DNA from: a virus
Lineage: Duplodnaviria; Caudoviricetes
DNA: 64,000 nucleotides
Direction: 5' to 3' (one strand)
Virus record (IMG/VR): IMGVR_UViG_3300031993_000004
Coordinates: 64,001 to 128,000 of that record
Below, in pieces: positions 16,742-34,200 of this stretch; the stretch's first letter is position 1, and each line of letters starts with the position of its first letter. Both the position numbers and the translations under genes were made by a program. The notes below the pieces were generated by a model. The model was not told the DNA's origin. It did no database searches and saw nothing but the letters and a program-made list of their open reading frames with translations.

Positions 16742-16749
16742 TTGAATTT

Positions 16750-16836: not shown

Positions 16837-18255
16837 ATGAGCAACCCAATCAAAAAGCGCATTGAAAAAATTGCTGACACATGCGCAATGTCAGCAGAGC
16901 ACTATCCGTTGCTGGAAAACTGGTTTCAGTGCACAGCAGAAACTGCTCGCGAGATTGAACGCTCGCAAATCAAATCTCTCGAAGAATTTGACAGCGTGGC
17001 ACTGGCATTGTCGGCACTGAGATCGGACATTCCAATCATTGACCGGTCCACTTTGAATGAAGGTATCGATGCATTACGGTCTGCATGCGCCAGATATTCG
17101 TCAGCCACCGATGAATTCTCTCCGTTCAACGCGTTAATTGCGCAGTCGTGCAATACGTTGATCGTTGTGGGTGAAGAGATCATCGGAGCACTCACCAATC
17201 TCAAAATTCTTGAGATTGCACTCGGCATCGGCACAATGGTCCCACGTGATGCTCCGGAAGAAGACGTGGCGACAACGGAACAGGAAAAAATCGAACAGAT
17301 TTGTTCCGCACCGGTACCGGCTGAAATCACCGTCACTTTACCGGCATCAGATAAGACTATCGTTCTTTCACAATGTGATGCAACTATTCTCGAACCCATC
17401 TTTGCCCAGAGAGAACAGGAACTGCAGGAGCCGATTCCGGAAGAAGACGCGGCGGCAACGGAACAGGAAAAAATCGAACAGATTTGTTCTGCACCGGCTG
17501 ACGAATGTGAGGAAAACAGTGGCTATACTGTTTTCGGAATTCCGATCGAGCAAATCGGAGTATCCCAGGAAGAAATCAAACGTGTTACAACAGATATTCC
17601 AGATCCGCCGAAGCCTAAGAAGAAACCCAATGAACCACGTAAAGTGGGAGTGCTGGATGTCCCGACTGGGTTTACCGCGCTCAAAGTTCCGGGTTTCCCG
17701 GATGACAGATTCATGTTGTCTGTAGATAATCAAATCGTTGACCGTCGGACAGGGCGGAAGATCAAAGCAACTCTCAGACACGGGGTTGAATATGTCAAGC
17801 TTTTCCATCCGAGAGATGAACATGGGGAACAACAGTTTGTCGAGTTCCCGCTCGCGGATCTGATCTCAAAATCTACATCTACAGCGGCATTGCCGCTTCC
17901 GAAACCTGCAATGACGGAGGAAAAAGACGACACATTTGTGTACGTCGATTGGTTTCCAGGAATACCTGCTCGGAAATATAAGGTATATGCCTCAGGAAAG
18001 GTATACGATACTGTACACAAAGAGTTTATACCCTATGACAGGAAGAACGAGTCTATTCGACTTACAGATTCGGATATCGAATCCCGCACGATTGGGGTTC
18101 ATGCGGTTGTCAAGGCGCTGAAACGGCAGTCACTCGTATGGCAGGCTTTCCATAAAGAATACCGGAATCAATCCAGGGTGTACATCTCTTTCAGAGATGG
18201 AAACAGACAGAATTGTGCACTCGACAATCTGTATATCGGAAGATCTGCAAAATAA
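16837..18255 (+). CDS. protein with NUMOD4-like motifs and degenerate HNH domain
   Basis: LKVPGFPDDRFMLS and VDWFPGIPARKYKVYASGKV (NUMOD4-like); LVWQAF...ISFRDGNRQNCALDNL (HNH_3-like, His absent). Confidence 0.6.
   Translation: MSNPIKKRIEKIADTCAMSAEHYPLLENWFQCTAETAREIERSQIKSLEEFDSVALALSALRSDIPIIDRSTLNEGIDALRSACARYSSATDEFSPFNALIAQSCNTLIVVGEEIIGALTNLKILEIALGIGTMVPRDAPEEDVATTEQEKIEQICSAPVPAEITVTLPASDKTIVLSQCDATILEPIFAQREQELQEPIPEEDAAATEQEKIEQICSAPADECEENSGYTVFGIPIEQIGVSQEEIKRVTTDIPDPPKPKKKPNEPRKVGVLDVPTGFTALKVPGFPDDRFMLSVDNQIVDRRTGRKIKATLRHGVEYVKLFHPRDEHGEQQFVEFPLADLISKSTSTAALPLPKPAMTEEKDDTFVYVDWFPGIPARKYKVYASGKVYDTVHKEFIPYDRKNESIRLTDSDIESRTIGVHAVVKALKRQSLVWQAFHKEYRNQSRVYISFRDGNRQNCALDNLYIGRSAK
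17253..17497 (+). repeat. 62-bp intragenic direct repeat (17253-17314 and 17436-17497)
   Basis: Both encode PEED(V/A)A(T/A)TEQEKIEQICSAP; 3 nucleotide mismatches. Confidence 0.9.
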
Positions 18256-18330
18256 TTCCACGGCAAAATCGTCGTGCGGGTATCTTTCGTACTGAATGAT
18301 ACCCGCATGATAATATAGGAGGTAACCCTT

Positions 18331-19263
18331 ATGACAACTGCATATGAAAAATACGAAGATGTGACCGGAAACAAAGATGCTTTCATCAACCAGATAAAGT
18401 GTCATCCGGATTTCAGCGAATCATTAAATATGATCGTATGCGAACCGTCAATTTTCTATGCCGCGTCAGATGAACTTAAATCCGGCACTGTTTCGTTTGA
18501 GCATCAGTGCACGGGCCACATTCATCGCGCAACAGAGTTGGATCCCGCCAGAAAACGTGCAGCGTACGTGCTGTATCATAATAGCACGACAATGCCATAT
18601 TCAAAAGCCAAAGAACTTGCGGCTTTTGATATTGAGTCTGCGCTGGATCTGTCTTCTCTGTATCATATTGCGGAAAAGCTTGACGATAAGTTCTTCATAT
18701 TGGCTTATATGAAGCAATATGCTCGGAACGGAATCATTACGCACACGAAACCTCATATATTTGTCGCCGATATTGTGGAAGATACGGAGTATATGGACGT
18801 CACATACGCGGACGGCGTATTTTCTTCTCATCCTTCGGGTCACCACAAACGTGTATACCAACTATCCGACATTTCCGACATGCTGACTGTTGGAGATGAA
18901 ATCGTAATTGGTGATAATGCACGTGAGGAATTATCGAATGAACAGACGAAAGCCTGGTGTGATCGTCACGTAAATTGCTTGCTCCGATCTGACGGCATTC
19001 CGAATCTGGATTTGTACCATTTGTATTATTTGGATGCTGAGGTTGCTGAATATGTGGCAGAAAAGCTAAACGCAATTCCAAAAATGAGGATGCGTGTATG
19101 CAGACAATGTCATTCTTCATTCCTTCTTTCAGAATCGGAAATGCAATGGTATGCCGATAAGGGATTCAAACTCCCGAATCGATGCGGTGTATGCCGTTCT
19201 GACGAAAAACGAAGGAGACGAGAAGCAGAACGCGAAGAGTATTTCCGCGATCTGCTTTTCTGA
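18331..19263 (+). CDS. protein with C-terminal zinc ribbon
   Basis: CRQCHSSFLLSESEMQWYADKGFKLPNRCGVCR (zf-trcl-like). Confidence 0.75.
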   Translation: MTTAYEKYEDVTGNKDAFINQIKCHPDFSESLNMIVCEPSIFYAASDELKSGTVSFEHQCTGHIHRATELDPARKRAAYVLYHNSTTMPYSKAKELAAFDIESALDLSSLYHIAEKLDDKFFILAYMKQYARNGIITHTKPHIFVADIVEDTEYMDVTYADGVFSSHPSGHHKRVYQLSDISDMLTVGDEIVIGDNAREELSNEQTKAWCDRHVNCLLRSDGIPNLDLYHLYYLDAEVAEYVAEKLNAIPKMRMRVCRQCHSSFLLSESEMQWYADKGFKLPNRCGVCRSDEKRRRREAEREEYFRDLLF

Positions 19264-19305
19264 TATAATTGCCCATATGTACAACATGTATGTATGGGCA
19301 AAGAT

Positions 19306-19376
19306 GGGTTCGTAGTTTAATGGCAAAACAACGGTCTCCAAAACCGTTGATTGGGGTTCGATTCCCTGCGGACCTG
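19306..19376 (+). tRNA. tRNA-Trp(CCA)
   Basis: GGGTTCG/CGGACCT acceptor; ACGGT-CTCCAAA-ACCGT; TTCGATT T-loop. Confidence 0.9.
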
Positions 19377-19474
19377 TCAAAATAAAAGGGAGTTAAGTCG
19401 TGGCGGTTTGAATCTGCTTTTAAGGTTCGGAGTGTACCGCACCACGCTAGCCCAAAGTCCATAAACACTCATCT

Positions 19475-19558
19475 GCTGGTGTGGCGAAATCGGCAGACGC
19501 AGTAGACTCAAAATCTACCGGTGGCGATACCATGTGGGTTCGAGTCCCACCACCAGCA
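19475..19558 (+). tRNA. tRNA-Leu(CAA)
   Basis: GCTGGTG/CACCAGC; GTAGA-CTCAAAA-TCTAC; long variable arm. Confidence 0.93.
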
Positions 19559-19560
19559 TT

Positions 19561-19645
19561 CATCACAGGAGATGAGAAGTTCCAGCACTTCTTCGTGGTC
19601 CCTCAATGAAACTGCGTAGTTTAAGGGTAAAACCCCCTGTGTTGA
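19561..19645 (+). ncRNA. circularly permuted tRNA-like RNA (YrlA-like topology)
   Basis: T-arm and 3' acceptor strand precede 5' acceptor strand and D-arm; closed by CACAGG/CCTGTG. Confidence 0.45.
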
Positions 19646-19706
19646 TTCAAGGCGACATATCATGGTCTGGTGGTGGCAAAAGATGACACAGAAAAGGAGA
19701 AACGGT

Positions 19707-20066
19707 ATGGAACTGAAAAGACAAATGCCCGAGCAGCATGATGTTGTGACATTCTATATTAACAGCGATGAGTTTAACACCATGATGCTCAATCATACTG
19801 CAAACGAGTTTGTTGCGCAACGACTCAATGGCATTGCGATCAAAGAGAATGATCTGATTGTCATATATGTCGATCGCGGACAAACGCACAATCTGTCGGC
19901 AGAGCTGATGAAACAATTGATGAAATCCCTTGTCGATCAGCTTGGCTGCAAAGTTATATGCATGCCAGCTGTCGCACATCTCTCGGTTGAATCCAAAAAG
20001 GATTTCATTAATATGCTGAGAGAAACTATCATATATCTTGAAAAAGGCGATGACGAAAATAATTGA
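19707..20066 (+). CDS. hypothetical protein
   Basis: Start moved to ATG 19707 after AAAGGAG. Confidence 0.7.
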   Translation: MELKRQMPEQHDVVTFYINSDEFNTMMLNHTANEFVAQRLNGIAIKENDLIVIYVDRGQTHNLSAELMKQLMKSLVDQLGCKVICMPAVAHLSVESKKDFINMLRETIIYLEKGDDENN

Positions 20067-20204
20067 GAGCGATTGGCGATAGTGCGTGAATCGCGGTGGT
20101 ATGTTGTGTGGAACTAATTTCCAGGGGAGTTTCGATTCCAGACGAGGATCCTGGAGAAATAGAATGTCGAGGCCGTAAGATCTAGAAGCACATCATATTG
20201 TCAT

Positions 20205-20347
20205 CATTACCTCGTATGCAAGTGGTCAAAAGCAGTCTACCTTTGGTAGGTAGAGAAGACTCTCCACCCGGGATATCCGGCCGGGTATCGGGTTAAAACT
20301 CGCAATCGCGAGGGGGAGTACGCGGGTTCGAATCCCGCCGGGTAATG
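20205..20347 (+). ncRNA. enlarged tRNA-like RNA
   Basis: CATTACC/GGTAATG closing stem, D-like AAGTGGTCAAA, T arm GCGGG-TTCGAAT-CCCGC, ~60-nt branched variable region, no 7-nt anticodon loop. Confidence 0.55.
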
Positions 20348-20367
20348 TTGCTCAATTCTATATAGGC

Positions 20368-20440
20368 CGGGGTGTAGCGCAGTTGGTAGCGCGCCTGCTT
20401 TGGGAGCAGGATGCCGCAGGTTCGAATCCTGTCACTCCGA
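20368..20440 (+). tRNA. tRNA-Pro(TGG)
   Basis: CGGGGTG/CACTCCG; CCTGC-TTTGGGA-GCAGG. Confidence 0.95.
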
Positions 20441-20448
20441 TTTCCCAT

Positions 20449-20532
20449 GCTACTGTGGCGAAATTGGCAGACGCAAGAGACTTAAAATCTCTCGGTGGAT
20501 ACATCTTGTGGGTTCAAGTCCCATCGGTAGCA
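20449..20532 (+). tRNA. tRNA-Leu(TAA)
   Basis: GCTACTG/CGGTAGC; AGAGA-CTTAAAA-TCTCT. Confidence 0.92.
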
Positions 20533-20587
20533 TTCAAAGGCACTTACAGCAATTCTCAAATAATGATGAATGAACGATGTGCCTTGA

Positions 20588-20665
20588 GGTGAAGTAGCTC
20601 AGGTGGTAGAGCGTCGGGAGTGTAACTCCTGCAGGGATGTTAGGTTCGAGCCCTAACCTTCACCA
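20588..20665 (+). tRNA. atypical tRNA, anticodon probably GTA (Tyr-reading)
   Basis: GGTGAAG/CTTCACC; canonical D and T arms; CGGGA-GTGTAAC-TCCTG with non-standard spacing and no long variable arm. Confidence 0.55.
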
Positions 20666-20782
20666 TCCACGTCCTGTCGGAACCTGTGTACGCAGGCCAA
20701 TTCCACAAATAAAAGGATATACGGCGCCAAATGACCGTGACGGTCATGTATATCCCTCTCGGCAGGCTCCGTGGTGCCATAT

Positions 20783-20860
20783 GCCAGTGTAGCTCAGTTG
20801 GTCGTTAAGAGCAGCTCCTTCATACGGAGAAGGTCGGTGGTTCGAATCCACTCATTGGCA
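20783..20860 (+). tRNA. tRNA-Met(CAT)
   Basis: GCCAGTG/CATTGGC; CTCC-TTCATAC-GGAG; Met versus Ile2 not certain. Confidence 0.8.
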
Positions 20861-20872
20861 TTCATTTTTTCA

Positions 20873-21450
20873 TCAATTGAGTAGTAAACAAAAGCCCATT
20901 CAAAGGATGGGTAAGCTTTACCAAGGAAATCGTTGCAGTGCACAAGGATAAGAGTATTGCGATATGCTGCATTCCTAGTATCGGACGAGTACGAAACCTT
21001 GGTTGTGTCATTGGCGCTATTAAGAAGCGTCTTCCCGAAAAGAGCCTCAACGTAAGATCCAGTAGAAGAATCCATAGTCTGGTGCATATCTCGGTCTGTG
21101 GATTGCGATGTAACTGGTGGGAAAAGGATGATACGGGAATCTCCTGAGTAGTGGCGAGCGAAAGGGATCCACAAGAGAGCATGGGGACACGATCCGAACA
21201 CGTGCTTGTGAGTGGTCAAAATCGCCCTGGAAACGGGCATGGGCAGTTATGAAAGATGATGAAAAGATGGCGACGGTTGTGTGCAGTCCAGACCATTTGG
21301 TTGGCGTGGGATACTAAGGAATCACCAGACTGCATATGAACCTAGATTGTTGTGTAAGCGGGAACGCACTGGCCACCTAGCGAGCCAGGTATACCGGAGG
21401 ATTCCGGCGAACATAATTGAAGTGAGACGCTCTATAATCTACACAACAAT
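20873..21450 (+). ncRNA. large structured ncRNA, ROOL-like
   Basis: ~580 nt, non-coding, between tRNAs; TCAATTG (20873) pairs TAATTGA (21414), crossing the 11-bp helix ATTGTTGTGTA (21346)/TACACAACAAT (21440); AGTA/GAA motifs. Confidence 0.55.
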
Positions 21451-21451
21451 T

Positions 21452-21527
21452 GGGGCTGGGCAGGAACACACGTGGCCAGGGTGGCGTTACGACGTTGCCT
21501 TACGGGTTCGAATCCCGTCACAGCTCT
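21452..21527 (+). ncRNA. degenerate tRNA-like element
   Basis: GGGGCTG/CAGCTCT stem and T arm ACGGG-TTCGAAT-CCCGT, but no canonical D or anticodon arm. Confidence 0.45.
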
Positions 21528-21530
21528 TCT

Positions 21531-21603
21531 GACTCGGTAGCCAAGAGGCAAGGCAAGGGAGTGCAAATCCTAGATGCGTCGTGTTCGAATCCGACCCGAG
21601 TCT
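21531..21603 (+). tRNA. tRNA-Cys(GCA), slightly atypical
   Basis: GACTCGG/CCGAGTC; GGA-GTGCAAA-TCC; bulged T stem. Confidence 0.7.
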
Positions 21604-21610
21604 TTTTTTT

Positions 21611-21686
21611 GGGGTATTAGCTCAGACTGGATCAGAGCACCTCCCTTCTAAGGAGGGTGTCGTGGGTTCGAATCCTACATACCCCA
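21611..21686 (+). tRNA. tRNA-Arg(TCT)
   Basis: GGGGTAT/ATACCCC; CCTCC-CTTCTAA-GGAGG. Confidence 0.93.
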
Positions 21687-21704
21687 TTCAACATTCCGAA
21701 ATTT

Positions 21705-21720
21705 CATATATATATTATTA
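21705..21720 (+). promoter_or_regulatory. putative early promoter motif
   Basis: CATATATATATTATTA directly upstream of a non-coding GC-rich region. Confidence 0.55.
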
Positions 21721-21724
21721 TTAT

Positions 21725-22410
21725 GAAGGAAGATAACATCTTCCTTTACGCGCGACACCAGCGCAGCACAACGACAAACAAGACCGAACACGGCGGTCGG
21801 ACGATCCCGAAATATGGGATTGTCCTAGGGTCACTAGGCTAACCCAAAGCAAATGCTAGCCTAGTCAGTTCGACAGCAACTGTTAGGGGTCAACCCGAAA
21901 AGCTGTAGTAATCGCATGTCCTATCCGCAATGTATTGAAGCATTGTGTAACCCATGATAGGATTCCTGTATCACTCGCCTCTGGGAGTGATAGGAGTAGG
22001 CTCACACATTACGCCGAGACGCGAACAAAGAAGGCAGGTCGACTTCGCTTTCCTGCTGAGCGGTCAGAGGAATACCCATACATCCGTGGTGGGATGTGAC
22101 AGTGCGTTGTGGAGAAAAGTTATGGGGTTTCTCCGCCAATCGAAAATCGATTGCCTAGGGGGATGGGATGAGATCCATCGTCTGAGCACCTGCGTGAAGA
22201 ATATCTCAAACCAAGACAGACGTGGTCCACTGGCGGCCGCGCTTGGTCGGGTGTGCGGTTGCACCCAACGGAATGTGTCCGATTGCGGATAGGTCATTCG
22301 GGTTAAAACACGCTAATTAGCGTGCCGGCTGGGCCTGGATCCGAACCGGGCACAACAACGAGGAAGGATACTGAGTGGGATTGCGTGTGACAATCCCACT
22401 CATTATTCTT
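21725..22410 (+). ncRNA. unassigned large structured ncRNA (~690 nt)
   Basis: Promoter upstream, terminator-like hairpin TGAGTGGGATTG/CAATCCCACTCA downstream, 12-bp long-range helix 21920-21931/22282-22293, many local hairpins, no credible ORF. Confidence 0.55.
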
Positions 22411-22511
22411 CTTATAAAGCGGGAGTGTCGGGGCCGATCCGGCCCCGAACTCTTTTGATCTATTTTTTATATTATATAGCGGGGGAGACCCCGCAGAAAG
22501 TGAGGATCATC

Positions 22512-23066
22512 ATGAGACCGACTAGACAAGAAATCAAATCCGTTGCAAGACGGAGAAGAAATCCGAATGGCGCATCGCGCGCCATCATCACAGCAGACGA
22601 TGTCCGCCAGTTGGCGGAAAAGCCCGTTCTGGAGTTGATGGGTTTGTTCCGCAGATGCTCCGGGACAAACGAAAGCGGTTTGGAGACCCTGTTCGGGGTC
22701 AAGAATGCTGCTCTTGACCGGGAGGCCCTTGAGCTGCTTGAGCCGATGTTCTTTCGTTATTTTGAACCGTTCTGTTTCAAAACAGAACGGTTCAACTCAT
22801 GGGAATTCAACATCCCCACGAGTGAACTACACGGTCTCGTGTATCTGGCAGATTATGACAACGAATTTGTGATAATGTCCCAATACGAAATAAGAAACAC
22901 TGGGGATGTAATCGATGTTGAAATCATCGGAATCGATAATGATTTCAGCACGGTAACCGTTTCCACGGGAACGAACTTCTCGTGGGGACAAACCGTCTGT
23001 TACTCCTACGACAGCTTGAGAGAAGCATATTTCGCTGCTGTCATTGAGCGAAGGTGGGAAAATTGA
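22512..23066 (+). CDS. hypothetical protein
   Basis: Start moved to ATG 22512 after AGAAAGTGAGG. Confidence 0.7.
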   Translation: MRPTRQEIKSVARRRRNPNGASRAIITADDVRQLAEKPVLELMGLFRRCSGTNESGLETLFGVKNAALDREALELLEPMFFRYFEPFCFKTERFNSWEFNIPTSELHGLVYLADYDNEFVIMSQYEIRNTGDVIDVEIIGIDNDFSTVTVSTGTNFSWGQTVCYSYDSLREAYFAAVIERRWEN

Positions 23067-23199
23067 GTGATTCAGGGGCGCTTCGGCGCCCCTCACTTTA
23101 TTTTTTTTTTTGATATTCTGATATTTCATATATATATTATTTTTGTGCAAAGGAAGTGATCATTCCAATGCAAATAATAAGAAAGTGAGGAAAAAAATT

Positions 23200-23973
23200 A
23201 TGAGCATTATGAAAGACCCCGTAATCTGGTATACTCTCGATGATTTCTATGACAGAAATGTGACATGTGTTTCACTGACACGAGAAGCATGTGACAAGAT
23301 GTTTGACAATCATAATGATGAATTAAAAGCAGATGGATTCCAACCACATCCGGAATCGGACAGAAAGGATCTTGTTCAGAGTATCGCACTGACCGGAGAC
23401 CTGACGATATACTATTGTGTCGCAGGATACTATAGTGGACAAAGCGTGGTCGGTGCATGTTTACAAAATCAGCTTGAGGAAATGCAAGCATTTGTCGATA
23501 GGCTCAATGCCCAGCACGGTGACAACTTTTTCCACATTGAAAAAGTCACGCTCGGACTTTCTCAAAATACGGACAAGACGTACTATGGTGTCCGCCTTCC
23601 GATCATTTCCGATATTCCGGATGGTTATTGGAATACATACAAAAACGTGTCTATGGACAATCTCGAGAACTTCCTGGTTCCAAAGGTTGAAGTTTGTACA
23701 GGAGATGATATTGAAGACTTCAACAAATACGGAATGGCGCGCCCCGAGATTTACAATCTCACAGTTGATCAACTGTGTATGACAGACGGAAGTGTCAAGT
23801 ATCTGTACAAGTACACAGTCCGCTGTTATGCGACTGACGATGTTCAGGCATTGAAAATTGCTACGGAAGCATTATCTCAGTATCTGTATGAAAAGAGATG
23901 CAACGAACCGCAAACAATGCCTGATCCGAACAGAATAACGACATGGGATACTGGTGATCCTGAAGAACATTAA
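23200..23973 (+). CDS. hypothetical protein
   Basis: Start moved to ATG 23200 after AGAAAGTGAGG; promoter motif 23127-23141. Confidence 0.7.
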   Translation: MSIMKDPVIWYTLDDFYDRNVTCVSLTREACDKMFDNHNDELKADGFQPHPESDRKDLVQSIALTGDLTIYYCVAGYYSGQSVVGACLQNQLEEMQAFVDRLNAQHGDNFFHIEKVTLGLSQNTDKTYYGVRLPIISDIPDGYWNTYKNVSMDNLENFLVPKVEVCTGDDIEDFNKYGMARPEIYNLTVDQLCMTDGSVKYLYKYTVRCYATDDVQALKIATEALSQYLYEKRCNEPQTMPDPNRITTWDTGDPEEH

Positions 23974-23987
23974 TGGAGGTTTAAAAA

Positions 23988-24704
23988 ATGGGCACTCAAG
24001 ATAGAAATCAAGAACTGGTAAGATCCAGATTTATAATGGCAAAACCACTGTATCTGAGCACAGTTGAAAAATGGGCAAAAGAACCCGCTGAAAACAAGAA
24101 CGGGTTCACAGAGCAAACCAGAGCTATCTATGCATCAGCAGCCGAGGAGGCTGAGAAGGAACATATTGATGGAAATGCAGTCCAGGTTTGCGAGCTGATC
24201 TTTGCGGAAAAAGAAGATGGTGCTGAGCGCATCATTTCCAGAATTCCGTTTCTGGTGACGTATCAATATAAAGAATCCCCGTATGGGAAAGGCGAACATG
24301 ACTGGTTCGCAACACCAAAAATGTATAACGTACACTCGTGGGAATACGGCACACCACAGATCGCATCCCCGCCGCTCAAAAAAGAGCAAAATTCTCACGC
24401 GGATTATTTGTGTTCTGCGGTCTTTACGATGCACGCTGTCATCAGAAGTGTCGCTCGTTCAGTGGCAGCAAACTCAAGCATCCCGTATAATTCAGAAATT
24501 ACAGACGGATGGTTACAAGATTCAGGCGCTGCACACGAATTCATTGTTCGTGCAAAATACTTATTGCACGACTGGTTTGAAAAACAGCATAAGCAGAGCA
24601 GATCTCCGATTGATCAGGATACCATCAATCAGAATGCAGCATTTCTGATGAGATCACTTGCTGCTCTTACAAATTCCACAGATGAAGGAGATGTTTCCAA
24701 ATGA
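23988..24704 (+). CDS. hypothetical protein
   Basis: 238 aa, GGAGG RBS. Confidence 0.7.
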   Translation: MGTQDRNQELVRSRFIMAKPLYLSTVEKWAKEPAENKNGFTEQTRAIYASAAEEAEKEHIDGNAVQVCELIFAEKEDGAERIISRIPFLVTYQYKESPYGKGEHDWFATPKMYNVHSWEYGTPQIASPPLKKEQNSHADYLCSAVFTMHAVIRSVARSVAANSSIPYNSEITDGWLQDSGAAHEFIVRAKYLLHDWFEKQHKQSRSPIDQDTINQNAAFLMRSLAALTNSTDEGDVSK

Positions 24705-25636
24705 TGAAAGCTGTGCTCCGATTAACATATAATGGCGTTGAACACAACATCATTTGTGAAGGCCGTTCAATCTATCCGGATTGTCTGGTTGAAGATGATG
24801 AACACCTGTATGTATACGAACTCTCAGAAAGATTAATCGAATGGCAGACAATTGTCGATGGCAAACCTTTGTGGCGGATTCATGTGACACATGATCCGTC
24901 CAAGAATGCGAAGTTATTCATTGTCACAAAATCGTCTCTTCGAAAAATATTCAAGCTGGACCCAATCGATGAGTACTGGATTGATGTTGAGGAAATCATT
25001 CCGTTTGATGATGATAAAGAGCACCCGTATTCGTATTCTTACGATGAGCGTGGTGAATATTTCGTCACAAATCCATTTTTACAAGATATGCCGGAATATC
25101 CGTTTGATCGGGATGAACTGACAAAAGCATATACAGAAATCATCGGGAATGAAGTCCTCGGGGATTCTTGTGCGGACGAACTGATGACTGAACTGGTTTG
25201 CTCTGGAGAGATTATTAATGCCGCCGGAGATTTCCGTATATGGACAGAAGAGGAAAATACCTATATTCTTCATCTGCCTTCTGGTACCATCGTTGGATGG
25301 TATAAGTTCTTCCATATCGGCAGATGCAATTTCTGTAATAAGCCTAATATGACAATTGCTGATTTGCGTCAATTCTTTATGCTACTGCGCAATCAGCTTC
25401 TCAAAGAACCTGATCGTGTAACTGATCCTATCATTCCGAAAGTTGCTGTTACGGAAATCGATCGCAATACGTATCCGGGAGATCCAAACGAGGATGTCAT
25501 TCTTGATATGTCGTCCATGTATCCGAAAATTGGAATCGTGATTCCGTCGGAGCATACGACATCTGATGGAAAGATCATCTATCATGGTGAACAAGGTCCC
25601 GATGAAGGAGACGATTATGAAACAGACGACAATTGA
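24701..25636 (+). CDS. hypothetical protein
   Basis: 311 aa, ATGA-coupled to upstream gene. Confidence 0.7.
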   Translation: MMKAVLRLTYNGVEHNIICEGRSIYPDCLVEDDEHLYVYELSERLIEWQTIVDGKPLWRIHVTHDPSKNAKLFIVTKSSLRKIFKLDPIDEYWIDVEEIIPFDDDKEHPYSYSYDERGEYFVTNPFLQDMPEYPFDRDELTKAYTEIIGNEVLGDSCADELMTELVCSGEIINAAGDFRIWTEEENTYILHLPSGTIVGWYKFFHIGRCNFCNKPNMTIADLRQFFMLLRNQLLKEPDRVTDPIIPKVAVTEIDRNTYPGDPNEDVILDMSSMYPKIGIVIPSEHTTSDGKIIYHGEQGPDEGDDYETDDN

Positions 25637-26216
25637 CCAAATCCGTGAGGTTGTAAGAGACTGCATTGAACAAGATGCAGTCCACGGAAGTGCGATTCAT
25701 TGGGATCTTGGAAAAGATTCCGATGGAAATGACCGTTTCTATGTGACATGGGGAAAACCCGGCGAATACACTCTCATCGGAGTAGAAAACAACATCGGAG
25801 TCGAAAACGCTTTCGTATATATCGTGCATGACTATGACACGGGTGAATCTATGCGATTCTTCGCGGATCATATCGAATCCGATCCAAAAAGATGGAACGA
25901 TTCCGGTGAACCCGACTTCGCGTCAGAAGGTCTATCAACATTGGCTACCGAGCTGATTACGATGATAGACACCCCCGAATATGATCTGTACGGAACCATC
26001 TTTGAAAAACACGAAGATGGTTCGTATTATCTTACCGAAGAGGCTGCTGCTGAGCAGGAACGACGCGAAAAAGAACAGCGTTTACGGAATTCCAAACCGG
26101 ACTGTATGCCAACAAATGCTGAAATGGGCGTGCAGCTCCTCACTCATCTGATATCGCAAGAAGCTTTATCGGCAAAACATTTATTACCACCTAAAGCAGG
26201 GGAGGGAACAAAATGA
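25617..26216 (+). CDS. hypothetical protein
   Basis: Start moved to ATG 25617 after AAGGAG. Confidence 0.7.
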   Translation: MKQTTIDQIREVVRDCIEQDAVHGSAIHWDLGKDSDGNDRFYVTWGKPGEYTLIGVENNIGVENAFVYIVHDYDTGESMRFFADHIESDPKRWNDSGEPDFASEGLSTLATELITMIDTPEYDLYGTIFEKHEDGSYYLTEEAAAEQERREKEQRLRNSKPDCMPTNAEMGVQLLTHLISQEALSAKHLLPPKAGEGTK

Positions 26217-26683
26217 GACTATGTGCTGGTTACGACGGGAGAACCTGTGTCCGGAATATGACCATGTTCTTGATGGCAGTTTTCTCGACGAAAATCTCCG
26301 AATACGCCATGAAGAAACTTGGTGACAAACACGACAATTTCTCGTGCCACCTCTTCGAAGAGGGTGCCGGCATTATGATCAGTGCGTCCCATGATGCGAA
26401 TGATGATCCAACGTTTTATCCCATGTATCGTGTGACTGTTAACGACGACCGTAATACTGTATACGTCGTATACGGTGATGACATCGTCACATTCCGTATT
26501 AAGACGACGGCGATTGGAACTGGAATTTCATGCTCAGATTATTCCAACATCAAAGATCCGATCGCATTGGAACATATCACGGAATTGCGTCAATTGATCC
26601 AGGATGCGATGAAGACGATCGTCGGCCCGATGGCAGCACTCGCCATAATGCCTGATGAAGGGATTGATCATGATGCATCGTAA
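26213..26683 (+). CDS. hypothetical protein
   Basis: 156 aa, ATGA-coupled. Confidence 0.65.
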   Translation: MRLCAGYDGRTCVRNMTMFLMAVFSTKISEYAMKKLGDKHDNFSCHLFEEGAGIMISASHDANDDPTFYPMYRVTVNDDRNTVYVVYGDDIVTFRIKTTAIGTGISCSDYSNIKDPIALEHITELRQLIQDAMKTIVGPMAALAIMPDEGIDHDAS

Positions 26684-27305
26684 GCCAATAAAGTACGAAC
26701 CCGTCAAGCCGTCTGTGTTTGACGGGTTCAAACTCGATCTGATTGTGATTGTAATCCTTATTATAATCGCAGGGGTCTGCACAATTATTACGACCCCAAG
26801 AACTAACAAAACCATGTCATCTGCTGATACAGCAGAAATCACGACCACGTGCACGACTTCAACTACCGTTATGACCACCACTACAACGGTTACGACTGTA
26901 ACAACTACGACAACCGAAATGACAACAACCACCACAACCACTTATGATCCAAAGGAACGCCTAATCGATTATGGCAACTTTACTGCCACTTATTATCATG
27001 GCAGATATACAAATCCATGTCCTGGTGGATCCGGACGGATGCTTCTGGACTGTACACCAAAAGACGATGAAATCAAAGGCAGTGTTGCTTGTCGACGGAT
27101 TCAAGAAGATTACGGATATAACGTAAACGGAAGAACCCGTGTTTATCTCGAAATGGACAGTCATCCTGAAATGGACGGCTGGTATTTCGTCGATGACGCG
27201 TGCGAGAAGCTCACAATTGTAGACTTTTATTTCATCGAATATGAGGATTGTCCATGGTGTGGTGATATACCACCATCTGTACACTTGTGGATGGAAGTCT
27301 CATAA
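26670..27305 (+). CDS. membrane-anchored 3D-domain (lytic transglycosylase-like) protein with Thr-rich linker
   Basis: TM LIVIVILIIIAGVC, poly-Thr linker, GNFTATYY..GSG..GSVAC..TRVYLE..GWYFVDDAC..VDFY resembles 3D domain. Confidence 0.6.
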   Translation: MMHRKPIKYEPVKPSVFDGFKLDLIVIVILIIIAGVCTIITTPRTNKTMSSADTAEITTTCTTSTTVMTTTTTVTTVTTTTTEMTTTTTTTYDPKERLIDYGNFTATYYHGRYTNPCPGGSGRMLLDCTPKDDEIKGSVACRRIQEDYGYNVNGRTRVYLEMDSHPEMDGWYFVDDACEKLTIVDFYFIEYEDCPWCGDIPPSVHLWMEVS

Positions 27306-27307
27306 CT

Positions 27308-28093
27308 GTCTAGTTTGGGTAAAGTGCTGCGAGGCGCAGTATGGTCGTGGTGTTGCACGGTCCAGTATGACATTGTTTTGTCGAGCAACTGTATAGCGGT
27401 GTATTGTCAGGTTTTGGTACTGTGGCGTTAGGTTCAGCACGGTCTCGTCTGGTACTGGTTTAGTATTGCCGAGCAGCGCAACGTATAATGCAGTGACGGT
27501 GTAGTCATGTCTGATGTGGTCGAGTCAAGTCAAGGTTAAGCTGCGTTCGGTGCAGGTGCCGTTCAGTTGTGGTGTAGTCGAGGTTTGGTAAAGTACTGTA
27601 CAGCTAAGTATCGTCAATGTGTTGTCAAGAACGGTTCCGTGATGTTAAGGTTAGGATACGTGCCGTATGATACCGTGAAGGTATGGTGCAATGAGCTCAA
27701 GTGTTGTTATGACACGTGCATTTCTGTAAAGGTTAAGCTCTGTGACGCATTGCATCTCGTGATTGTAAAGGAAAGTGTCATGCAGAACAGTGCAGCGTAG
27801 TTTCTGTGCTGTTATATCTTGTCCAGCGTGGTTAAGGTCGGGTACGGTCCCGCATTGTTCTGTTTGGTAATGTAATAGCGTAGTACAGTTAGGTTGTGTT
27901 ACGTAGAGCAACTGCATAGTGATCTGATGTAGGGTCGTGTCACGGTCGGTGATGTAATGTACAGCATAGGTATAGTTCCGTATAGTATCGTTCAGCCATG
28001 TTCAGTTGCGGTAGAGTAAAGTTGAGCGACGTGTGGTAGGGTAACGGTGGAGTGTTGTGTTGTCACGTGAAGTCAAGTAATAGTAATGGTAAA
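27308..28093 (+). repeat. degenerate pentamer (GY-NNN) array 2
   Basis: GTCTA GTTTGG GTAAA GTGCT GCGAG GCGCA GTATG...; same grammar as array 1; starts 2 nt after the upstream stop. Confidence 0.9.
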
Positions 28094-28146
28094 CACACTC
28101 ATCACAATTCTTTCGTAATATGAGATTTGAAGAAATTCTGAAATCT

Positions 28147-28163
28147 CATATATATATCATTAT
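28147..28163 (+). promoter_or_regulatory. putative early promoter of the RAMP gene
   Basis: CATATATATATCATTAT, identical to the motif at 16750. Confidence 0.6.
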
Positions 28164-28268
28164 GATGATCCGGAGACAAATTCTCACCCCCACCCGGATC
28201 AAAAACAAACAAATTCACAAATTCAATGGGTTTAAAGTGGGGGACAACCCGGAAAAGGAGCGCATATT

Positions 28269-29033
28269 ATGGCAAACAAGAAAGACGCTGCAGAAGCAGC
28301 AGCAACAACCACCACGGTCGAGAAGAAGGCACCTGCGAAAAAGAAGGCAAAATCTGATGGGCCTCAAAAGTATTACATGACGACAGTTGAGGTAACTTTC
28401 ACGAACGAGCTTCTGGCCACCAACAGCGCGGATCCGGATATCTATTCCGCGTATCTCGCGTCACTCGCAAGTGACGAAGACCGCAAGGCGGAACTCGAGC
28501 GTCTCGGCCTCGCAGAGGTTGATGAGAAGGGTATGACGGTTTTCCTCAGAAACAAGGAAAACCCGATGATCCCTCAGCTCAAGGCATATACATGGCTCGG
28601 GTTCCTCAAGGCCCGCAGCCGTGCACAGGCAAAGATCGACGGAAATCCGATCGTTGGAATGACCGCATATATCAAAGAAATCGATGACCGCATTGCGGTA
28701 TCTCCGAAATTCATTGATCTGGAGCTCCCGGAAGGAGCAGCTGTTGACACTCTGCAGCGTCCGCTTCGTGCGCAAACCATGCAGGGTGACCGTGTCGCTC
28801 TCGCAAAGTCTGAGACTGTTCCGGCTGGCACAAAGTGCCGCTTTACCTTCAGAACCGAAACTCTTGAAGGTATGAAGCTTGTTGAAGCCTGCCTCAGATA
28901 CGGCGCTATCCATGGTACAGGCCAGTGGAGGAATGCCGGTTACGGCACCTTCACATATAAGATCATCGATAGATGGTCGGAGGTCGAAGAGCCGATCGTT
29001 CTGTCTGAAGAGGACTTCCCTGTCCGCGCATAA
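28269..29033 (+). CDS. stand-alone Cas7/Csm3-like RAMP-fold protein (Vipr-like candidate RNA-guided effector)
   Basis: VEVTFTNELLAT (beta1), PQLKAYTWLGFLKAR, SETVPAGTKCRFTF, C-terminal G-rich loop YGAIHGTGQWRNAGYGTF; AAAAGGAG RBS; flanked by pentamer arrays. Confidence 0.75.
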   Translation: MANKKDAAEAAATTTTVEKKAPAKKKAKSDGPQKYYMTTVEVTFTNELLATNSADPDIYSAYLASLASDEDRKAELERLGLAEVDEKGMTVFLRNKENPMIPQLKAYTWLGFLKARSRAQAKIDGNPIVGMTAYIKEIDDRIAVSPKFIDLELPEGAAVDTLQRPLRAQTMQGDRVALAKSETVPAGTKCRFTFRTETLEGMKLVEACLRYGAIHGTGQWRNAGYGTFTYKIIDRWSEVEEPIVLSEEDFPVRA

Positions 29034-29047
29034 TACTCACAAGATCG

Positions 29048-29080
29048 AAATTGGCGGTGTCTATATGGCACCGCCAATTT
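29048..29080 (+). promoter_or_regulatory. hairpin between the RAMP gene and array 3
   Basis: AAATTGGCGGTG-TCTATATGG-CACCGCCAATTT. Confidence 0.6.
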
Positions 29081-29097
29081 TCTATGCTACCACAATG

Positions 29098-29425
29098 GCT
29101 TAACAGTAACGGCACAGTTTCGCGGGGTCAAGTGCAGTCCAGTCGTGGTATGGCATTGTTTACTAATGTCTCGTGGAGTTTTGGCATGGTGTGGTTTCGC
29201 TGTGTGGCGTGCTGTCAAGGCAGGGTATTGTACTATGACGCATTGTCGCGTATTGGTTACGTAATGTGAGACATGGTTATGTGTCGTAAAGGCATTGTGG
29301 AGTACGGTAATGTTGTGCTTAGTCATGTTATGGTATAGCAGCGGTTGGTGAGGTGTTGCTGTGTGGCGTTTCGGTATTGTGATGTTCCGTGTCGTGGAGC
29401 AGAGTAATTGTGACATCACTGTATA
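29098..29425 (+). repeat. degenerate pentamer (GY-NNN) array 3
   Basis: GTAACG GCACA GTTTC GCGGG GTCAA GTGCA GTCCA GTCGTG GTATG GCATT...; directly downstream of the RAMP gene. Confidence 0.88.
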
Positions 29426-29436
29426 CCATATAATAT

Positions 29437-29556
29437 TCCGGGATGGTGGAACTGGCAGACACAGCGCCTGGCTAATAGTGGTTATTCACTGGCGAAAACG
29501 CGAGGTTTGGCGAATAACCGAACCAAATCATCTGGGTTCAAATCCCAGTCTCGGAT
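29437..29556 (+). ncRNA. Leu-type tRNA-like RNA with expanded anticodon region and internal 8-bp complementarity
   Basis: TCCGGGA/TCTCGGA; D arm GGTGGAACTGGCAGACAC; CTGGG-TTCAAAT-CCCAG; GGTTATTC (29480) complements GAATAACC (29512). Confidence 0.6.
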
Positions 29557-29677
29557 TCAGGCTGAACTGCGCATTGGTTTCACAATCGTGTCACCATATT
29601 AGTCGTGTATGTTTTGCCGGTTTGGTTTGCAGTGGTGGTGCTAAGGCATTCACACCACCACTGCTTTCCAGACGAAC

Positions 29678-29751
29678 GGGCCTCTAGCTCAGACGGTTAG
29701 AGCAGTGGACTCATAATCCATTGGTCCAGGGTTCGAGTCCCTGGGGGCCCA
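29678..29751 (+). tRNA. tRNA-Ile2/Met(CAT)
   Basis: GGGCCTC/GGGGCCC; GTGGA-CTCATAA-TCCAT; body resembles lysidine tRNA-Ile2. Confidence 0.85.
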
Positions 29752-29794
29752 TCATCTATATAATTAGCGAAGGGGAGTACAACATAATATTTGA

Positions 29795-29880
29795 GGAGAG
29801 GTGTCCGAGTGGCTTAAGGAGCCAGTCTTGAAAACTGGTGATACGGAAACGTACCGTGGGTTCAAATCCCACTCTCTCCG
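29795..29880 (+). tRNA. tRNA-Ser(TGA)
   Basis: GGAGAGG/TCTCTCC; CCAGT-CTTGAAA-ACTGG; long variable arm. Confidence 0.95.
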
Positions 29881-30376
29881 TCAAACTCTAAGACGTCTGA
29901 TTTCGCAGACGCGTGCTTCCTTTTCGGCTTTAAACCGCCTGGCATGCCGATTCATGACCAGGTATAAAAAACAGTCCGTGTGTATCGAAACCGGCCAATG
30001 ATCTTAGGCCGGATCGCGCCCGCCGCCTGCAGATCGCGGCATTGAGCTCTTATCTCCGTGAGAGTTGGCGCTACTATGTGAGAGACACGGACTACCGCTG
30101 GGGTTTACATAAATGCGGTTTACCCAGCACCAGCTTATTGCCAGAGGCAACAGCTGCCGGCTTTGCTGTTGTCTTTGCTCAGATAAGGGCCTAGTATTCA
30201 GGAATTTACAAAGCGGGTTATGCTTATTGAGGTTTCAGAGAGCGCCGCAATGGATGCGCTTGAAGATGTCGTTCATCTCTAAATCCAATGTGTTCATGTT
30301 GCGGAAGCACAACAACAACCACAACGACCACAGATGCTCGGCTTCCCCGCTAAAGAATATGAAAAACGCTCAATTT

Positions 30377-30448
30377 GCACGTGTCGTACAGTGGGCAGTA
30401 TACCAGCCTTCCAAGCTGGGGATGAGGGTTCAATTCCCTTCACGTGCT
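30377..30448 (+). tRNA. tRNA-Gly(TCC)
   Basis: GCACGTG/CACGTGC; CCAGC-CTTCCAA-GCTGG. Confidence 0.92.
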
Positions 30449-30722
30449 TCGACGATGATGGTTTGATTTCTGACATTTACGGGTTATGTATTAACCGGTC
30501 GATGTATTGACAGATACATATGGCAGAATGATACTATCACCGTCGCACTCCGTATAAACCGTAGGGGTAGAGGCACCCACCCCTGCGGTTTTGCTCTTTA
30601 CTGTAAATTCTTGCAGTTTGTCCATTCTGCAAGGATCTGCATGAAGATACCTCCAGACGCGCAGGAGTTCTCACGCTAGCTAAGAGGACTCCTGCACTGC
30701 GTCGCCTGAGAAAGGAGAAACT

Positions 30723-30989
30723 ATGAATGATGATCTCAAAAAATGCTTGACAAGCGTTGCAGCATTGATCGCAATATTCATTCTCTGCTCTGCGCTCGGA
30801 TCATGTTGCACAGAGCAGGATATACGTGATTACACGTATATCTATGTCGATGGACAACAATACATGACATCAGATATTGTTGACATAAGTTATATCCCTC
30901 TCCGCTACGGCAATGACGCCGTGACATTCAAGCTCAAAGACGGAACTGTTATACGCACACAATCTAATGATTATACTCTCAGCAATTAA
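30723..30989 (+). CDS. small membrane/lipoprotein-like protein
   Basis: 88 aa, AAAGGAG RBS, N-terminal hydrophobic helix ending LGSCC. Confidence 0.65.
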   Translation: MNDDLKKCLTSVAALIAIFILCSALGSCCTEQDIRDYTYIYVDGQQYMTSDIVDISYIPLRYGNDAVTFKLKDGTVIRTQSNDYTLSN

Positions 30990-31001
30990 GCGTTTCCATA
31001 T

Positions 31002-31073
31002 TGGAGTATGGCCAAGCGGCAAGGCATCAGACTTTGACTCTGACACGCGCTGGTTCGAATCCAGCTACTCCAA
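31002..31073 (+). tRNA. tRNA-Gln(TTG)
   Basis: TGGAGTA/TACTCCA; TCAGA-CTTTGAC-TCTGA. Confidence 0.93.
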
Positions 31074-31214
31074 CTCAATATCTTTTATCTCGGCACCAAA
31101 TGATTTTTCAACACTCGTTTTGGTGCGCAGTCTTCACTTTCTATACTGATTTCATTTGATTTCAGTTGTCCACGGTTTCGACATCTTCCGTGGACATTCT
31201 TTTTTAAGAAATAT

Positions 31215-31250
31215 GGAGCGGGGCAATGCCCCGCTCCTTCTTATTTTTTT
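31215..31250. terminator. terminator between convergent units
   Basis: GGAGCGGGGC-AAT-GCCCCGCTCC plus T-run. Confidence 0.75.
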
Positions 31251-34200
31251 TTATATCTGAGACCATTCATGAGATTCCTGATCGTATACTTTCAGATCAA
31301 CACGACCAGTTGTTGTGTTCTCATCCATGAGCAACATCTTGTAATTTACTGGGTCGCCATCTTCATTCAACACATCTGTTGTGTTTCCGACGTTTGCACC
31401 GCGGAGTATTGACATTCTGACAGGCGTGAATTCACGTCCGTCATCAGGAGCACTACTCTTCAGCTTGTATGTTCCTGTCGCAGGAATGCTTGGGAATACA
31501 AGTCTCCAAGAACCTCTTGGTGCTTTGGATGTAAGTACGGATCCACCGGCATTGTCAGAAAAGAGCTTCACGAATTCCGGTTGCTGATAGATCTCTGATG
31601 TAGTATCCGCAGTAGAATATGCCGGAGAATTCGAATACACATTGTATATTGAATGTGCTGATACAGAACCAGCATTTTCAATAATTGATGCATGTGTGGT
31701 TCCAGCCGCGTCGCAAACCTCAACGGATTCCCAACTCAGCTTTTCACGTACAACATACAGATCACGTGTATGTGCATTCACATAATACTTTTCATGCACA
31801 TCAGACATTGGATCGAACATCCATACCATCGGACCAACATGTGGAACATTCCACATGATCGTTGTTTGTGTATTGGTATGAACATATTCCGGAGATACCA
31901 GATCATTGCCAGGAAGCATGGACGTTTTGTCTGTTGACTGGAGATTGTTCAATGAACGATGGACGACGCCATATTCAAATTCAAAATTCAATGAATCTGA
32001 TGGATCAATCCATCTCCAGAAAATATATGAATCGAATTGGTTTCCACCATTTTCTCTTATTTTTTCCAGAACGGCGCCTTCGCTCTTACCGTATGCACTC
32101 AATCTCCGAAGACCGCGACAATACATCTTGTTGATGTCGATGACAGTGAGATCATCATACGTGTCACTTCCAGACGATGCAGCTGTCGATGGAACATGCA
32201 CTGGTGTACAATTTGTATCGACAACATTAATCGATGATGCGGTTGTGAACGCTTGCATCATGATATCCGCGGCATATGGTGCCATTGGGTTAACAGGAAG
32301 ATTACGCGCCGATGGAAGAATGGAATTCATATATGAATCACGGAGTGATACTTCACCAGTGACCGACGATGTATCGGACGCATATGATTGCGCAACCAAC
32401 CGTTCCTTGACCCACTGATTGTTTCGTCTGAGGACAAACCAGACACCTTCAAAGTCAGAAACGAACGCAAACAAATCGGAGAACACAGGACCTTTCTTAG
32501 GAAGCAGATCTGCACAATTCGCGATCCTCAGAATAACGCGAAGACCGCGTCCACTTACAACACCACCGGTATCAAGCGGAGATGTTCCATAAGCCTGTGT
32601 CAAACCAGAACCTGTGTCAATTGAAGCCAGATCAAAGTTTGCCAGATTGATCAGTGTGCTAGCATCATCATTCGACGCTAATTCTGCGCTGACAACAGAC
32701 CCACTTGCAGTAACAGCCGTGACTTGATATGTGAACGAGTAACCACCGACAACGATGATACCCATCGAACCGACACTGTATCCAGTACCACCTTCGAAGA
32801 TATGTGCAATGGATACATCAACCGGATGAACGCCGCGATTCAGATTCGTTGTTTCTCTGAAATCATTGTGGTTCATCAGATCCACCTGATTCAAAAGCTC
32901 CATGGAATCGAAGACGAATTCATTAGATTGTGTATCCGGCTCTCCCGTATAGATCGGTGTACCGGTTACGTCCAATGCAGTTGGGCGGACCCATCTATTC
33001 TTCGAACCATTGTACAGATAATTCTGGTCTTTCTCTGTAAAGGTTGCTTCTGACCGAATGTATTTTTTGTCAACAACAGATGTTGGTGCAACACCGTGAA
33101 TGCCGGAAAGTTGCATGATGGATGTTGGAATATCACAGATACGCGCAAGCGTACGTTCCGGTTTCGGATTCTTTGCAGTTGCATTGTTCTGATACGTCGC
33201 AGAGTCATTTGACAACACGTATACACGTCCGATCTCGCTTGTATCGACATCGTCTGATGTATACGGCGCGACTTTCTCTGTGATAGAATTTTCATCAATT
33301 GCAACAACCAATCCTGTACCGGTTGTGAATGTGTGATACCACCACGGAAGTCCGTCCGCCATAAGTCCGGTTCCAGTTCCGGCAAGCTGTGACGTTCTCG
33401 CTTCCATAAGTTCTTCTTGTGTAAAGTTTTCGTCATACACCCATTCTGTCGTGAGATGAGAACCTGTCAACAATGATTTGTCATACACGGCTTCGTATGC
33501 AGATCCTGCATAATACCCAGGAAGCAAGATGTATTTCTGTTCTTGTTGATCCCAGATATACACATTTGGCTCGTTTGTCGCTTTGTATATTTTTGATTCA
33601 TCGGGGATGATCAGTTCCAATTCTGATGAATCCGTAAAGAATTCTCCACGTTCACTATCATAGAAACCGTAAATCATTTCGTCAACATCATCTTCCGATG
33701 AATCAACATACAATGGGTTCAATTCTGTTGCTGCTCCTGTCACAGGATCAACTGCAGTAATCTCGACGAGTGTTCTGCTTCGAGATCCATTATTGAACTT
33801 CACCCAAACACGGTTTGGATTGGTGATATGTCTGTACATATCACCGCTCAGAAGTGTGTATGCCGTATTATATTGGTCATACCTGTATGATGCCGATGAC
33901 GGAATGTCAATATACAGTTTACCTGGATCAGCTGTGATCAACGTTGTATGTGCCGCCTCTTCGTAAAAGGCTCCATTGTAGAAGTATCCTCTGACAACAA
34001 CACGTTCATCGAGTTGCTGGTTATAACCGGCACCGCCAGACACGATTGAGATTGCATCCAACTCATATGAACCGGGATGGAAATTGTCATCGTACGAACG
34101 CTCAACACCAGGATCAAACAACAGACCTGCAATTTGCCGTGTTGATTGATCACTCGGTCTGTAGAATGGCGTGTCGTGTGCCGCATACACCGATAAGTGT

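Follow-up and report, generated by a model that had tools for sequence, protein, structure and literature searches.

A probable VIPR locus with three GY-NNN guide arrays in the genome of an uncultured jumbo phage

The stretch of DNA analysed here (hereafter the window; IMG/VR record IMGVR_UViG_3300031993_000004, positions 64,001 to 128,000) covers 64 kb of the genome of an uncultured jumbo phage, a single contig of 277,583 bp that is rated complete. It carries a lone gene, vipr, for a protein of the RAMP superfamily, together with three arrays of five-nucleotide units in which a G and a pyrimidine (Y) are fixed and three bases are free (GY-NNN). As argued below, the gene and the arrays very probably make up a Viral Interference Programmable Repeat (VIPR) system. 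The kind has already been published in 2026 preprints, and the locus is not a new class; what is unusual is its guide format. Its main components are as follows.

14654-16699, + strand: array A, about 400 GY-NNN units in 55 blocks (51 with at least 5 units)
27308-28087, + strand: array B, 151 units in 25 blocks (19 with at least 5 units)
28269-29033, + strand: vipr, gene for a 254-aa lone RAMP protein of predicted Cas7/Csm3 fold
29106-29419, + strand: array C, 61 units in 10 blocks (8 with at least 5 units)

Layout and grammar of the arrays

The initial annotation had recognised two same-strand GY-NNN arrays on either side of the gene. Both are present, and the third and largest one, array A, is added here. 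We scanned the window for chains of at least six GY dinucleotides at exact 5-nt spacing, with one miss permitted, and found 58 such chains on the + strand and 2 on the - strand, 2.3 being expected from shuffles. All 58 chains of the + strand fall within 14665-16696, 27319-28078 and 29112-29405, and in the whole genome there are no arrays other than these three. Array A extends over 2 kb and is located 11.5 kb upstream of vipr, starting after the hairpin that ends a dCMP deaminase-like gene. Array B begins 3 nt past the stop codon of the open reading frame (ORF) at 26655-27305.

Tiling of the three arrays gave 612 units, of which 525 are pentamers. The first position of the unit is G in 92% of cases and the second is T or C in 95% (T in 74%); positions 3, 4 and 5 carry 0.08, 0.04 and 0.01 bit, respectively. 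The base preceding GY, suspected to be variable in the initial annotation, is indeed so: it is G in only 25% of units (0.01 bit), and the GGY/NN unit of type II VIPR systems is not matched. The arrays also contain 84 six-base units with the consensus GTnAnG, and the unit following such a unit mostly starts with GY-A. Since each six-base unit shifts the phase by +1, the arrays are partitioned into blocks of 31, 36, 41, 46 or 51 nt, and 71 of the 90 blocks have a length of 5n+1. Array C has its block starts spaced by 36, 36, 36, 36, 36, 41 and 41 nt. The blocks, consisting of 6-11 units, abut directly, with one six-base unit in between and no structured 3′ tail. Counting blocks of at least five units gives about 78 guides in total (51, 19 and 8 in A, B and C), and we put the guide number of this phage at about 80-90 over the three arrays.

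The free triplets show hardly any bias (chi-square 71, about 54 degrees of freedom), and stop codons are not depleted among them. ATG is enriched as the first triplet of the guides (13 of 76), but this enrichment is weak because A is biased in the first unit. Array A includes three pairs of guide blocks that are diverged duplicates of each other:

15604-15644 and 15768-15808, array A: diverged duplicate guide blocks
15086-15111 and 16074-16099, array A: diverged duplicate guide blocks
15328-15363 and 15395-15430, array A: diverged duplicate guide blocks

One of these pairs decodes to KELMDNK and IELMADN, as if the two copies had been following variants of one protein motif.

Several signals that bear on transcription accompany the gene and the arrays:

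16705-16741, + strand: intrinsic terminator closing array A, a 16-bp stem followed by a T run
16749-16766, + strand: second exact copy of an 18-nt motif, just past array A
28146-28163, + strand: promoter-like motif before vipr, an exact copy of the 18-nt motif between array B and the gene
29050-29084, + strand: hairpin and short T run after vipr, terminator-like
2175, 11253, 16749, 21704, 23126, 28146, 50946 and 56697 (+ strand) and 61693 (- strand): sites of the 18-nt motif in the window

The terminator at 16705-16741 indicates the + strand as the transcribed strand of array A. The hairpin after vipr was read directly from the sequence and is absent from the list returned by a terminator consensus scan. 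The window contains nine matches to the AT-rich 18-nt motif, TCATATATATATCATTAT, as compared with 0.1 expected; the motif is probably a phage-specific promoter. Its exact copy at 28146-28163 agrees with the earlier suggestion that the gene has a promoter motif of its own. An Rfam scan of 13000-32000 found tRNA families only and no ribozyme.

The Vipr protein and its relatives

The 254-aa ORF (28269-29033, + strand) and the RAMP motifs quoted for it in the initial annotation are present, and the comparison with Cas7 and Csm3 structures that had been proposed as a check has confirmed a RAMP fold of this type in the predicted model. Sequence searches were of little help: Pfam, NCBIfam and PHROGs returned nothing useful, and a PDB sequence search only weak G-loop matches, to Csm4 and type VII Cas7. 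By structure, the AlphaFold2 model, obtained from 30 homologues with a mean predicted local distance difference test score (pLDDT) of 82, matched in the Foldseek search of the PDB nothing else than CRISPR RAMPs, with type VII Cas7 at the top (E 8e-9). A wide structural search pointed to Csm3 of 9g9a (Z 12.7, root-mean-square deviation 4.1, 165 residues aligned) and to 6ae2 (Z 11.8), and its top 37 matches were Cas7, Cas5 or Cas6 proteins throughout. The best match among viral models was a phage protein annotated as RAMP superfamily, the next ones being proteins of two archaeal viruses. The model features a βαββαβ core, a long hairpin (residues 160-184) at the position of the thumb, and the G-loop GTGQWRNAGYG (residues 216-226).

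Outside the core, two elements are found in the jumbo-phage clade. One is a basic, Lys/Ala/Thr-rich extension (residues 1-32; window 28269-28364), which is modelled with low confidence as disordered and is confined to this clade; the other is a conserved C-terminal DFPxR tail (residues 243-254; window 28995-29030). Vipr relatives of about 200 aa have neither. When three copies of the protein were folded together, the score was 0.52, compared with 0.00 for the best of three controls. In the calibration, 20 of 30 proteins with structures solved as pairs of one chain reached this mark, as did 1 of 23 solved as single chains. At least 50% of contacts agree between the runs, and the partner pLDDT is at least 67 (68 per run). 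In the three-copy model, the C-terminal tail ending in DFPVR docks onto the neighbouring copy. Because solved Cas7 filaments may account for this outcome, we take it as a sign of likeness to them and not of binding.

Relatives of Vipr are numerous. A large protein collection contains 308 homologues, several of them on contigs of 260-295 kb, and more than 520 IMG/VR loci encode a Vipr relative. The initial annotation had suggested looking for 5-nt-periodic arrays next to the homologues, and this is what we found. In a set of 80 loci, G shows a period-5 power of about three times the background in the 500 nt before the gene and the 1 kb after it, whereas elsewhere in the same loci the power equals the background. 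Moreover, block lengths of 5n+1 recur in the arrays of a further 41 sources, all encoding a Vipr relative. Related jumbo phages are syntenic, with arrays of 0.7-1.4 kb adjoining the gene, and in one phage genome (G001) the arrays lie 3 and 8 kb from vipr. Thus, the period-5 signal and the arrays of the relatives make the linkage between gene and arrays a property of the family.

The guides themselves turn over between relatives like spacers. Phages having Vipr proteins 61-72% identical to the present one share no array sequence with this phage, one block excepted, and among four strains with identical Vipr the arrays are 2-3 times more variable than the flanks. The following block of array B is conserved in another phage:

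28011-28046, + strand: conserved guide block, recurring in the related jumbo phage L084 at position 9251

Between these two copies, 20 of 21 free positions are the same and 4 of 14 GY positions have changed.

Relation to known VIPR and CRISPR systems

VIPR, an RNA-guided DNA silencer related to CRISPR, was first described in 2026 (10.64898/2026.04.26.720920; hereafter the VIPR preprint), and in-depth study has so far covered type II only. As defined in the VIPR preprint, a VIPR system consists of a lone, mostly phage-encoded RAMP protein (Vipr) flanked by arrays of 5-nt repeats, without cas genes and usually with an accessory gene (10.64898/2026.04.26.720920). At the present locus we found a RAMP protein, its model showing an RRM core together with a G-loop and a thumb hairpin. 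The gene is flanked by 5-nt arrays to which it is linked across viral relatives, and neither a CRISPR array nor cas1 was found. The complete genome of 277,583 bp has a single copy of vipr, no second RAMP, no cas1 and no CRISPR-like repeats. Hence the initial proposal of a lone-RAMP, CRISPR-independent, RNA-guided system is supported by the fold, by the conserved linkage and by the lack of cas1 and CRISPR repeats, and the resemblance to phage VIPR systems, which had been put forward with it, turns out to be right, VIPR having been published (bioRxiv 10.64898/2026.04.26.720920). The Cas7/Csm3 backbones of class 1 CRISPR effectors are similar in fold, G-loop, thumb hairpin and the use of one protomer per fixed RNA period. 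However, their period is 6 nt and they need Cas5, Cas6, a large subunit and CRISPR repeats; a complete genome that lacks CRISPR repeats, cas1 and a second RAMP does not accommodate such an effector.

According to the VIPR preprint (10.64898/2026.04.26.720920), the type II Vipr filament uses one repeat per protomer; GGY is hidden and NN pairs with double-stranded DNA, every third base of the target being skipped. This two-read, one-skip rule was shown for type II and applied to types III and V. The same source mentions loci with NNNGG, YNNNG or NNNNG repeats and, in the methods and the legend of fig. S18, 'staggered arrays' in which adjacent vrRNAs have one base in common. Tandem YNNNG is equivalent to GY-NNN, and a shared base is equivalent to 5n+1 blocks; therefore, this wording fits the present locus, the form of which appears to be the YNNNG/staggered type, listed but left uncharacterised in bioRxiv 10.64898/2026.04.26.720920. 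The two are alike in the lone phage RAMP, in same-strand repeats of 5 nt in which three bases are free besides the fixed G and Y, and in guides that abut with a one-base offset and no spacer. For this type, the text of the preprint states neither a reading rule nor the number of guides nor a host, whereas here about 80-90 guides are distributed over three arrays up to 11.5 kb from the gene. As to the distinct code variant suggested initially, the G before GY is not conserved, as suspected, but YNNNG repeats and staggered arrays are already contained in the preprint. Three features exceed what has been described in the preprints, namely the scale, the lack of both a tail and a recognisable vap gene, and indications of gap-free reading.

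A more detailed comparison can be made with type II. We inspected Escherichia phage SUSP1, in which GGYNN arrays with hairpin tails flank two genes, one of 195 aa and the other of 146 aa. Type II systems (SUSP1 and a Pseudomonas fulva prophage) share with the present locus a small RAMP that has both a thumb and a G-loop, and the W-R pair of this loop is kept. In SUSP1, too, same-strand arrays are found on both sides of vipr. Published VIPR guides include ones against other VIPR loci (10.64898/2026.04.26.720920), and some guides of the relatives studied here also appear to be aimed at rival VIPR loci. On the other hand, the SUSP1 locus has GGY/NN units, 9-16 repeats followed by a structured pseudoknot tail, four guides, vap1 and a target with one-base skips, whereas the jumbo-phage locus has GY/NNN units, 6-11 of them ended by a six-base unit, no tail, no recognisable vap, and Gln where SUSP1 has the Asp that reads the first G. 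In the SUSP1 Vipr, H17 and D177 recognise G1, W178 provides the stacking surface for G2, and R179 is one of several residues that hold Y3 (10.64898/2026.04.26.720927). D177-W178-R179 aligns with Q219-W220-R221 in every alignment that we made, and all three residues are invariant in the present Vipr family. We infer that the contacts to G2 and Y3 may have been kept and one contact to G1 changed, mirroring the repeats, in which G2 and Y3 are fixed and G1 is free. MAFFT gave no reliable alignment of the thumb residues across the two Vipr families, and the correspondence is claimed for the G-loop only. In profile comparisons, hhalign against type II Vipr gave a probability of 35% with small profiles and 58% with 120-sequence profiles, covering the G-loop module only (43-46 columns), and cross hmmsearch with the type II family (the PSI-BLAST family of X1U2U4, SUSP1 clade) reached at most 15.5 bits.

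Non-canonical VIPR arrays found with a language model, with WGT/NN, TGH/NN and GAC/NN units (bioRxiv 10.64898/2026.10.21.760802), are similar in having a period of 5, a degenerate first position and an adjacent Vipr-like fold. They are modelled as three fixed plus two free bases with about 10 repeats, whereas at the present locus the position before G carries no information.

Reading of the guides and alternative explanations

We compared ten spacing rules for decoding the guides. When 287 guides from all sources were matched to 1.4 Mb of DNA, an excess was seen only under gap-free reading of the three free bases, with 19 guides having at most 12% mismatches as compared with 5-12 in shuffles. 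Two guides of relatives have matches in vipr leaders. With GY removed, a guide of locus L046 matches, in 19 of 21 bases, the A-rich vipr leader and ribosome site of 11 related loci, the match stopping 6 nt short of the ATG. Similarly, a guide of L011, of which L080 has a shorter version, matches the vipr leader of L068, ending 10 nt before the ATG. In both cases, the vipr leader of the phage carrying the guide differs from the target. When the search was confined to vipr leaders, none of 30 shuffled sets reached the level of at most 10% mismatches. The sixth base of the closing unit is a mismatch with the leader target. The guides have the sense of the mRNA, and therefore pairing is possible with the template strand of DNA but not with the transcript.

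These matches suggest that target DNA is read gap-free, with 5 RNA bases corresponding to 3 DNA bases per protomer. We consider this somewhat likelier than the contrary and go no further, because the basis consists of two independent guide-target pairs, both from relatives. The discontinuous targeting code proposed initially would accordingly need to be split: the limited leader matches of the relatives point to a discontinuous guide RNA combined with gap-free reading of the DNA. For the family code as a whole, we lean slightly towards GY+NNN units specifying unbroken DNA triplets, with guides delimited by phase slips of one base, about 90 of them in a single phage, each addressing 18-33 bp, and some directed against rival vipr leaders. 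Other guides are possibly aimed at a small helix-hairpin-helix gene attached to host restriction-modification islands.

This last suggestion comes from the window's own guides, for which the proposed search produced a single tentative set of matches. In the phage's own genome, self-targeting under the ten spacing rules equalled that of shuffled controls. Likewise, related or co-occurring phages (all of G001, the initial 220 kb of G002, and the five smaller Vipr-bearing phages G003-G007) contained no excess of matches under any rule. A wobble-degenerate scan of genome contigs singled out one Rodentibacter gene (third bases 4/9), which we judged a chance match. The conserved guide at 28011-28046, once decoded, has seven exact matches in metagenome contigs when spelled as in L084; the copy in the window differs by one base. 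Four of the seven are within a 75-aa gene that weakly matches helix-hairpin-helix domains. On contig L115 (618-13553), this gene directly follows the type III restriction gene of an island that also comprises AAA_13, SNF2 helicase, DUF4391 and DNA methylase genes. In L109 its contig also has a serine recombinase, and in L111 the contig was judged defence-linked, by eye only. The three other matches fall in host genes, identified by eye in translation: truB (two contigs) and a SCIFF-type radical-SAM maturase (one). Since about one match may be expected by chance and two of the three gene families look like bystanders, we regard the whole set as a lead only.

How the free bases are read is also where the most serious competitor of the gap-free reading comes in, a VIPR system obeying the published rule (two bases read, one skipped), in which the third free base is unread and the gap-free matches are coincidental. 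The rule was demonstrated for type II, and types III and V have also been treated by it. In strains that do not differ in Vipr, substitution amounts to 1.8% at G, 4.4% at Y and 2.2%, 3.2% and 4.2% at the three free positions; the third one thus changes most, although these rates do not separate the rules. In the two leader matches, however, 13 of 14 units agree at the third free base, where about 3.5 would be expected if this base were unread, and the guide at 28011-28046 and its L084 copy keep 7 of 7 third bases even though 4 of 14 GY positions have changed. On balance, we find the published rule doubtful for this locus. We consider it very improbable that Vipr is instead a Csm3-like backbone of an RNA-targeting complex, the guides pairing with rival or host transcripts in the manner of type III, type VII or Cas7-11. 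True, the nearest solved folds, namely Csm3, Cmr4, type VII Cas7 and Cas7-11, are all RNA-targeting. Yet the credible guides share the sense of their target mRNA and cannot pair with it; Cas10, Cas14 or another partner is not in the genome, which has no cas1 and a single RAMP; and characterised VIPR binds double-stranded DNA (10.64898/2026.04.26.720920).

The remaining explanation dispenses with guides altogether: the arrays would act as DNA, for instance as structural elements of the phage chromosome, as origins or as tracts bound by proteins, and the RAMP, without any part in targeting, would attach to this DNA or to its transcripts. It could account for the lack of a promoter directly before the arrays and of a proven target for any guide of the window. 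However, the motif occurs on one strand only and a strong terminator of the same strand ends array A; relatives retain the frame but have entirely different bases at the variable positions; and guides of relatives fit rival vipr leaders far better than shuffled ones do. In view of this, we rate the explanation as extremely improbable.

Several observations weigh against the identification as VIPR and against gap-free reading, and they should be kept in view. The function assigned here is read from sequence and predicted structure, and the kinship of the protein to the characterised type II Vipr appears weak at the sequence level. There is no recognisable vap-like accessory gene, the neighbouring ORFs having no Pfam match. 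Such a gene may not be an absolute requirement, because the VIPR preprint says 'typically' (10.64898/2026.04.26.720920). No promoter motif was found directly upstream of any of the three arrays. Arrays A and C are preceded by hairpins at the ends of upstream genes, and the arrays may be produced by read-through from the genes that precede them. As for targets, exact searches of IMG/VR with six decoded guides, of which five belong to arrays B and C and one to array A, found no match, the sole set of metagenome matches may be due to chance, and the two pairs that point to contiguous reading both come from relatives and neither from this window.

A few neighbouring sequences, in the window and in relatives, are of interest in their own right. 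The gene upstream of array A (13396-14616) encodes a fusion of a dCMP/cytidine deaminase with another domain, about 240 aa long, that belongs to no known family. The stretch between array C and a tRNA-Met gene (29430-29580) has a tRNA-like look, with a T-arm of GGTTCAAATCCCAG type; neither ARAGORN nor Rfam calls a tRNA there, and it could be a degenerate or interrupted one. In a relative (L106, 11353-12246), the gene directly 3′ of vipr encodes sigma-70 region 4 and RNA polymerase alpha-CTD domains. It is a possible candidate for a vap-like DNA-binding accessory and has no counterpart in the window. In a related jumbo phage (L102-L105, 6243-7337), a gene of the tubulin family (PhuZ-like) is located 2.7 kb upstream of vipr, which hints that relatives may organise their DNA like nucleus-forming phages.

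For the VIPR system with gap-free reading, we propose the following mechanism, in which array transcription and processing, formation of the ribonucleoprotein, DNA binding and silencing are all modelled by analogy with type II. The three + strand arrays would be transcribed into long precursors holding about 80-90 guides. One Vipr protomer would occupy each 5-nt unit and hold the constant G and pyrimidine, as in the solved type II complex, while the three free bases would be presented to the double-stranded DNA of a competing element, which would then be silenced. The GTnAnG six-base unit, with the GY-A that follows, would shift the register by one base, ending one filament and starting the next, and would in this way replace the structured 3′ tail of type II guides. 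The ratio of 5 RNA to 3 DNA bases would be kept, but the base skipped in type II would now be read, namely by the N found in place of the first G of GGY, and the resulting target would be contiguous DNA of 18-33 bp.

Overall, the locus shows the scale on which such a design can be used: in this jumbo phage, one 254-aa protein would serve about 80-90 tail-less guides from three arrays. The family to which it belongs, with more than 500 viral loci, offers a convenient setting in which a second reading rule could be worked out. With gap-free reading of the target, the programmable code would be denser and simpler than GGY/NN, and the Asp-to-Gln change in the G-loop would provide a structural handle for code switching. 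Finally, the leader matches add uncultured phages of the gut and the rumen to the published picture, in which phages silence one another's VIPR systems.

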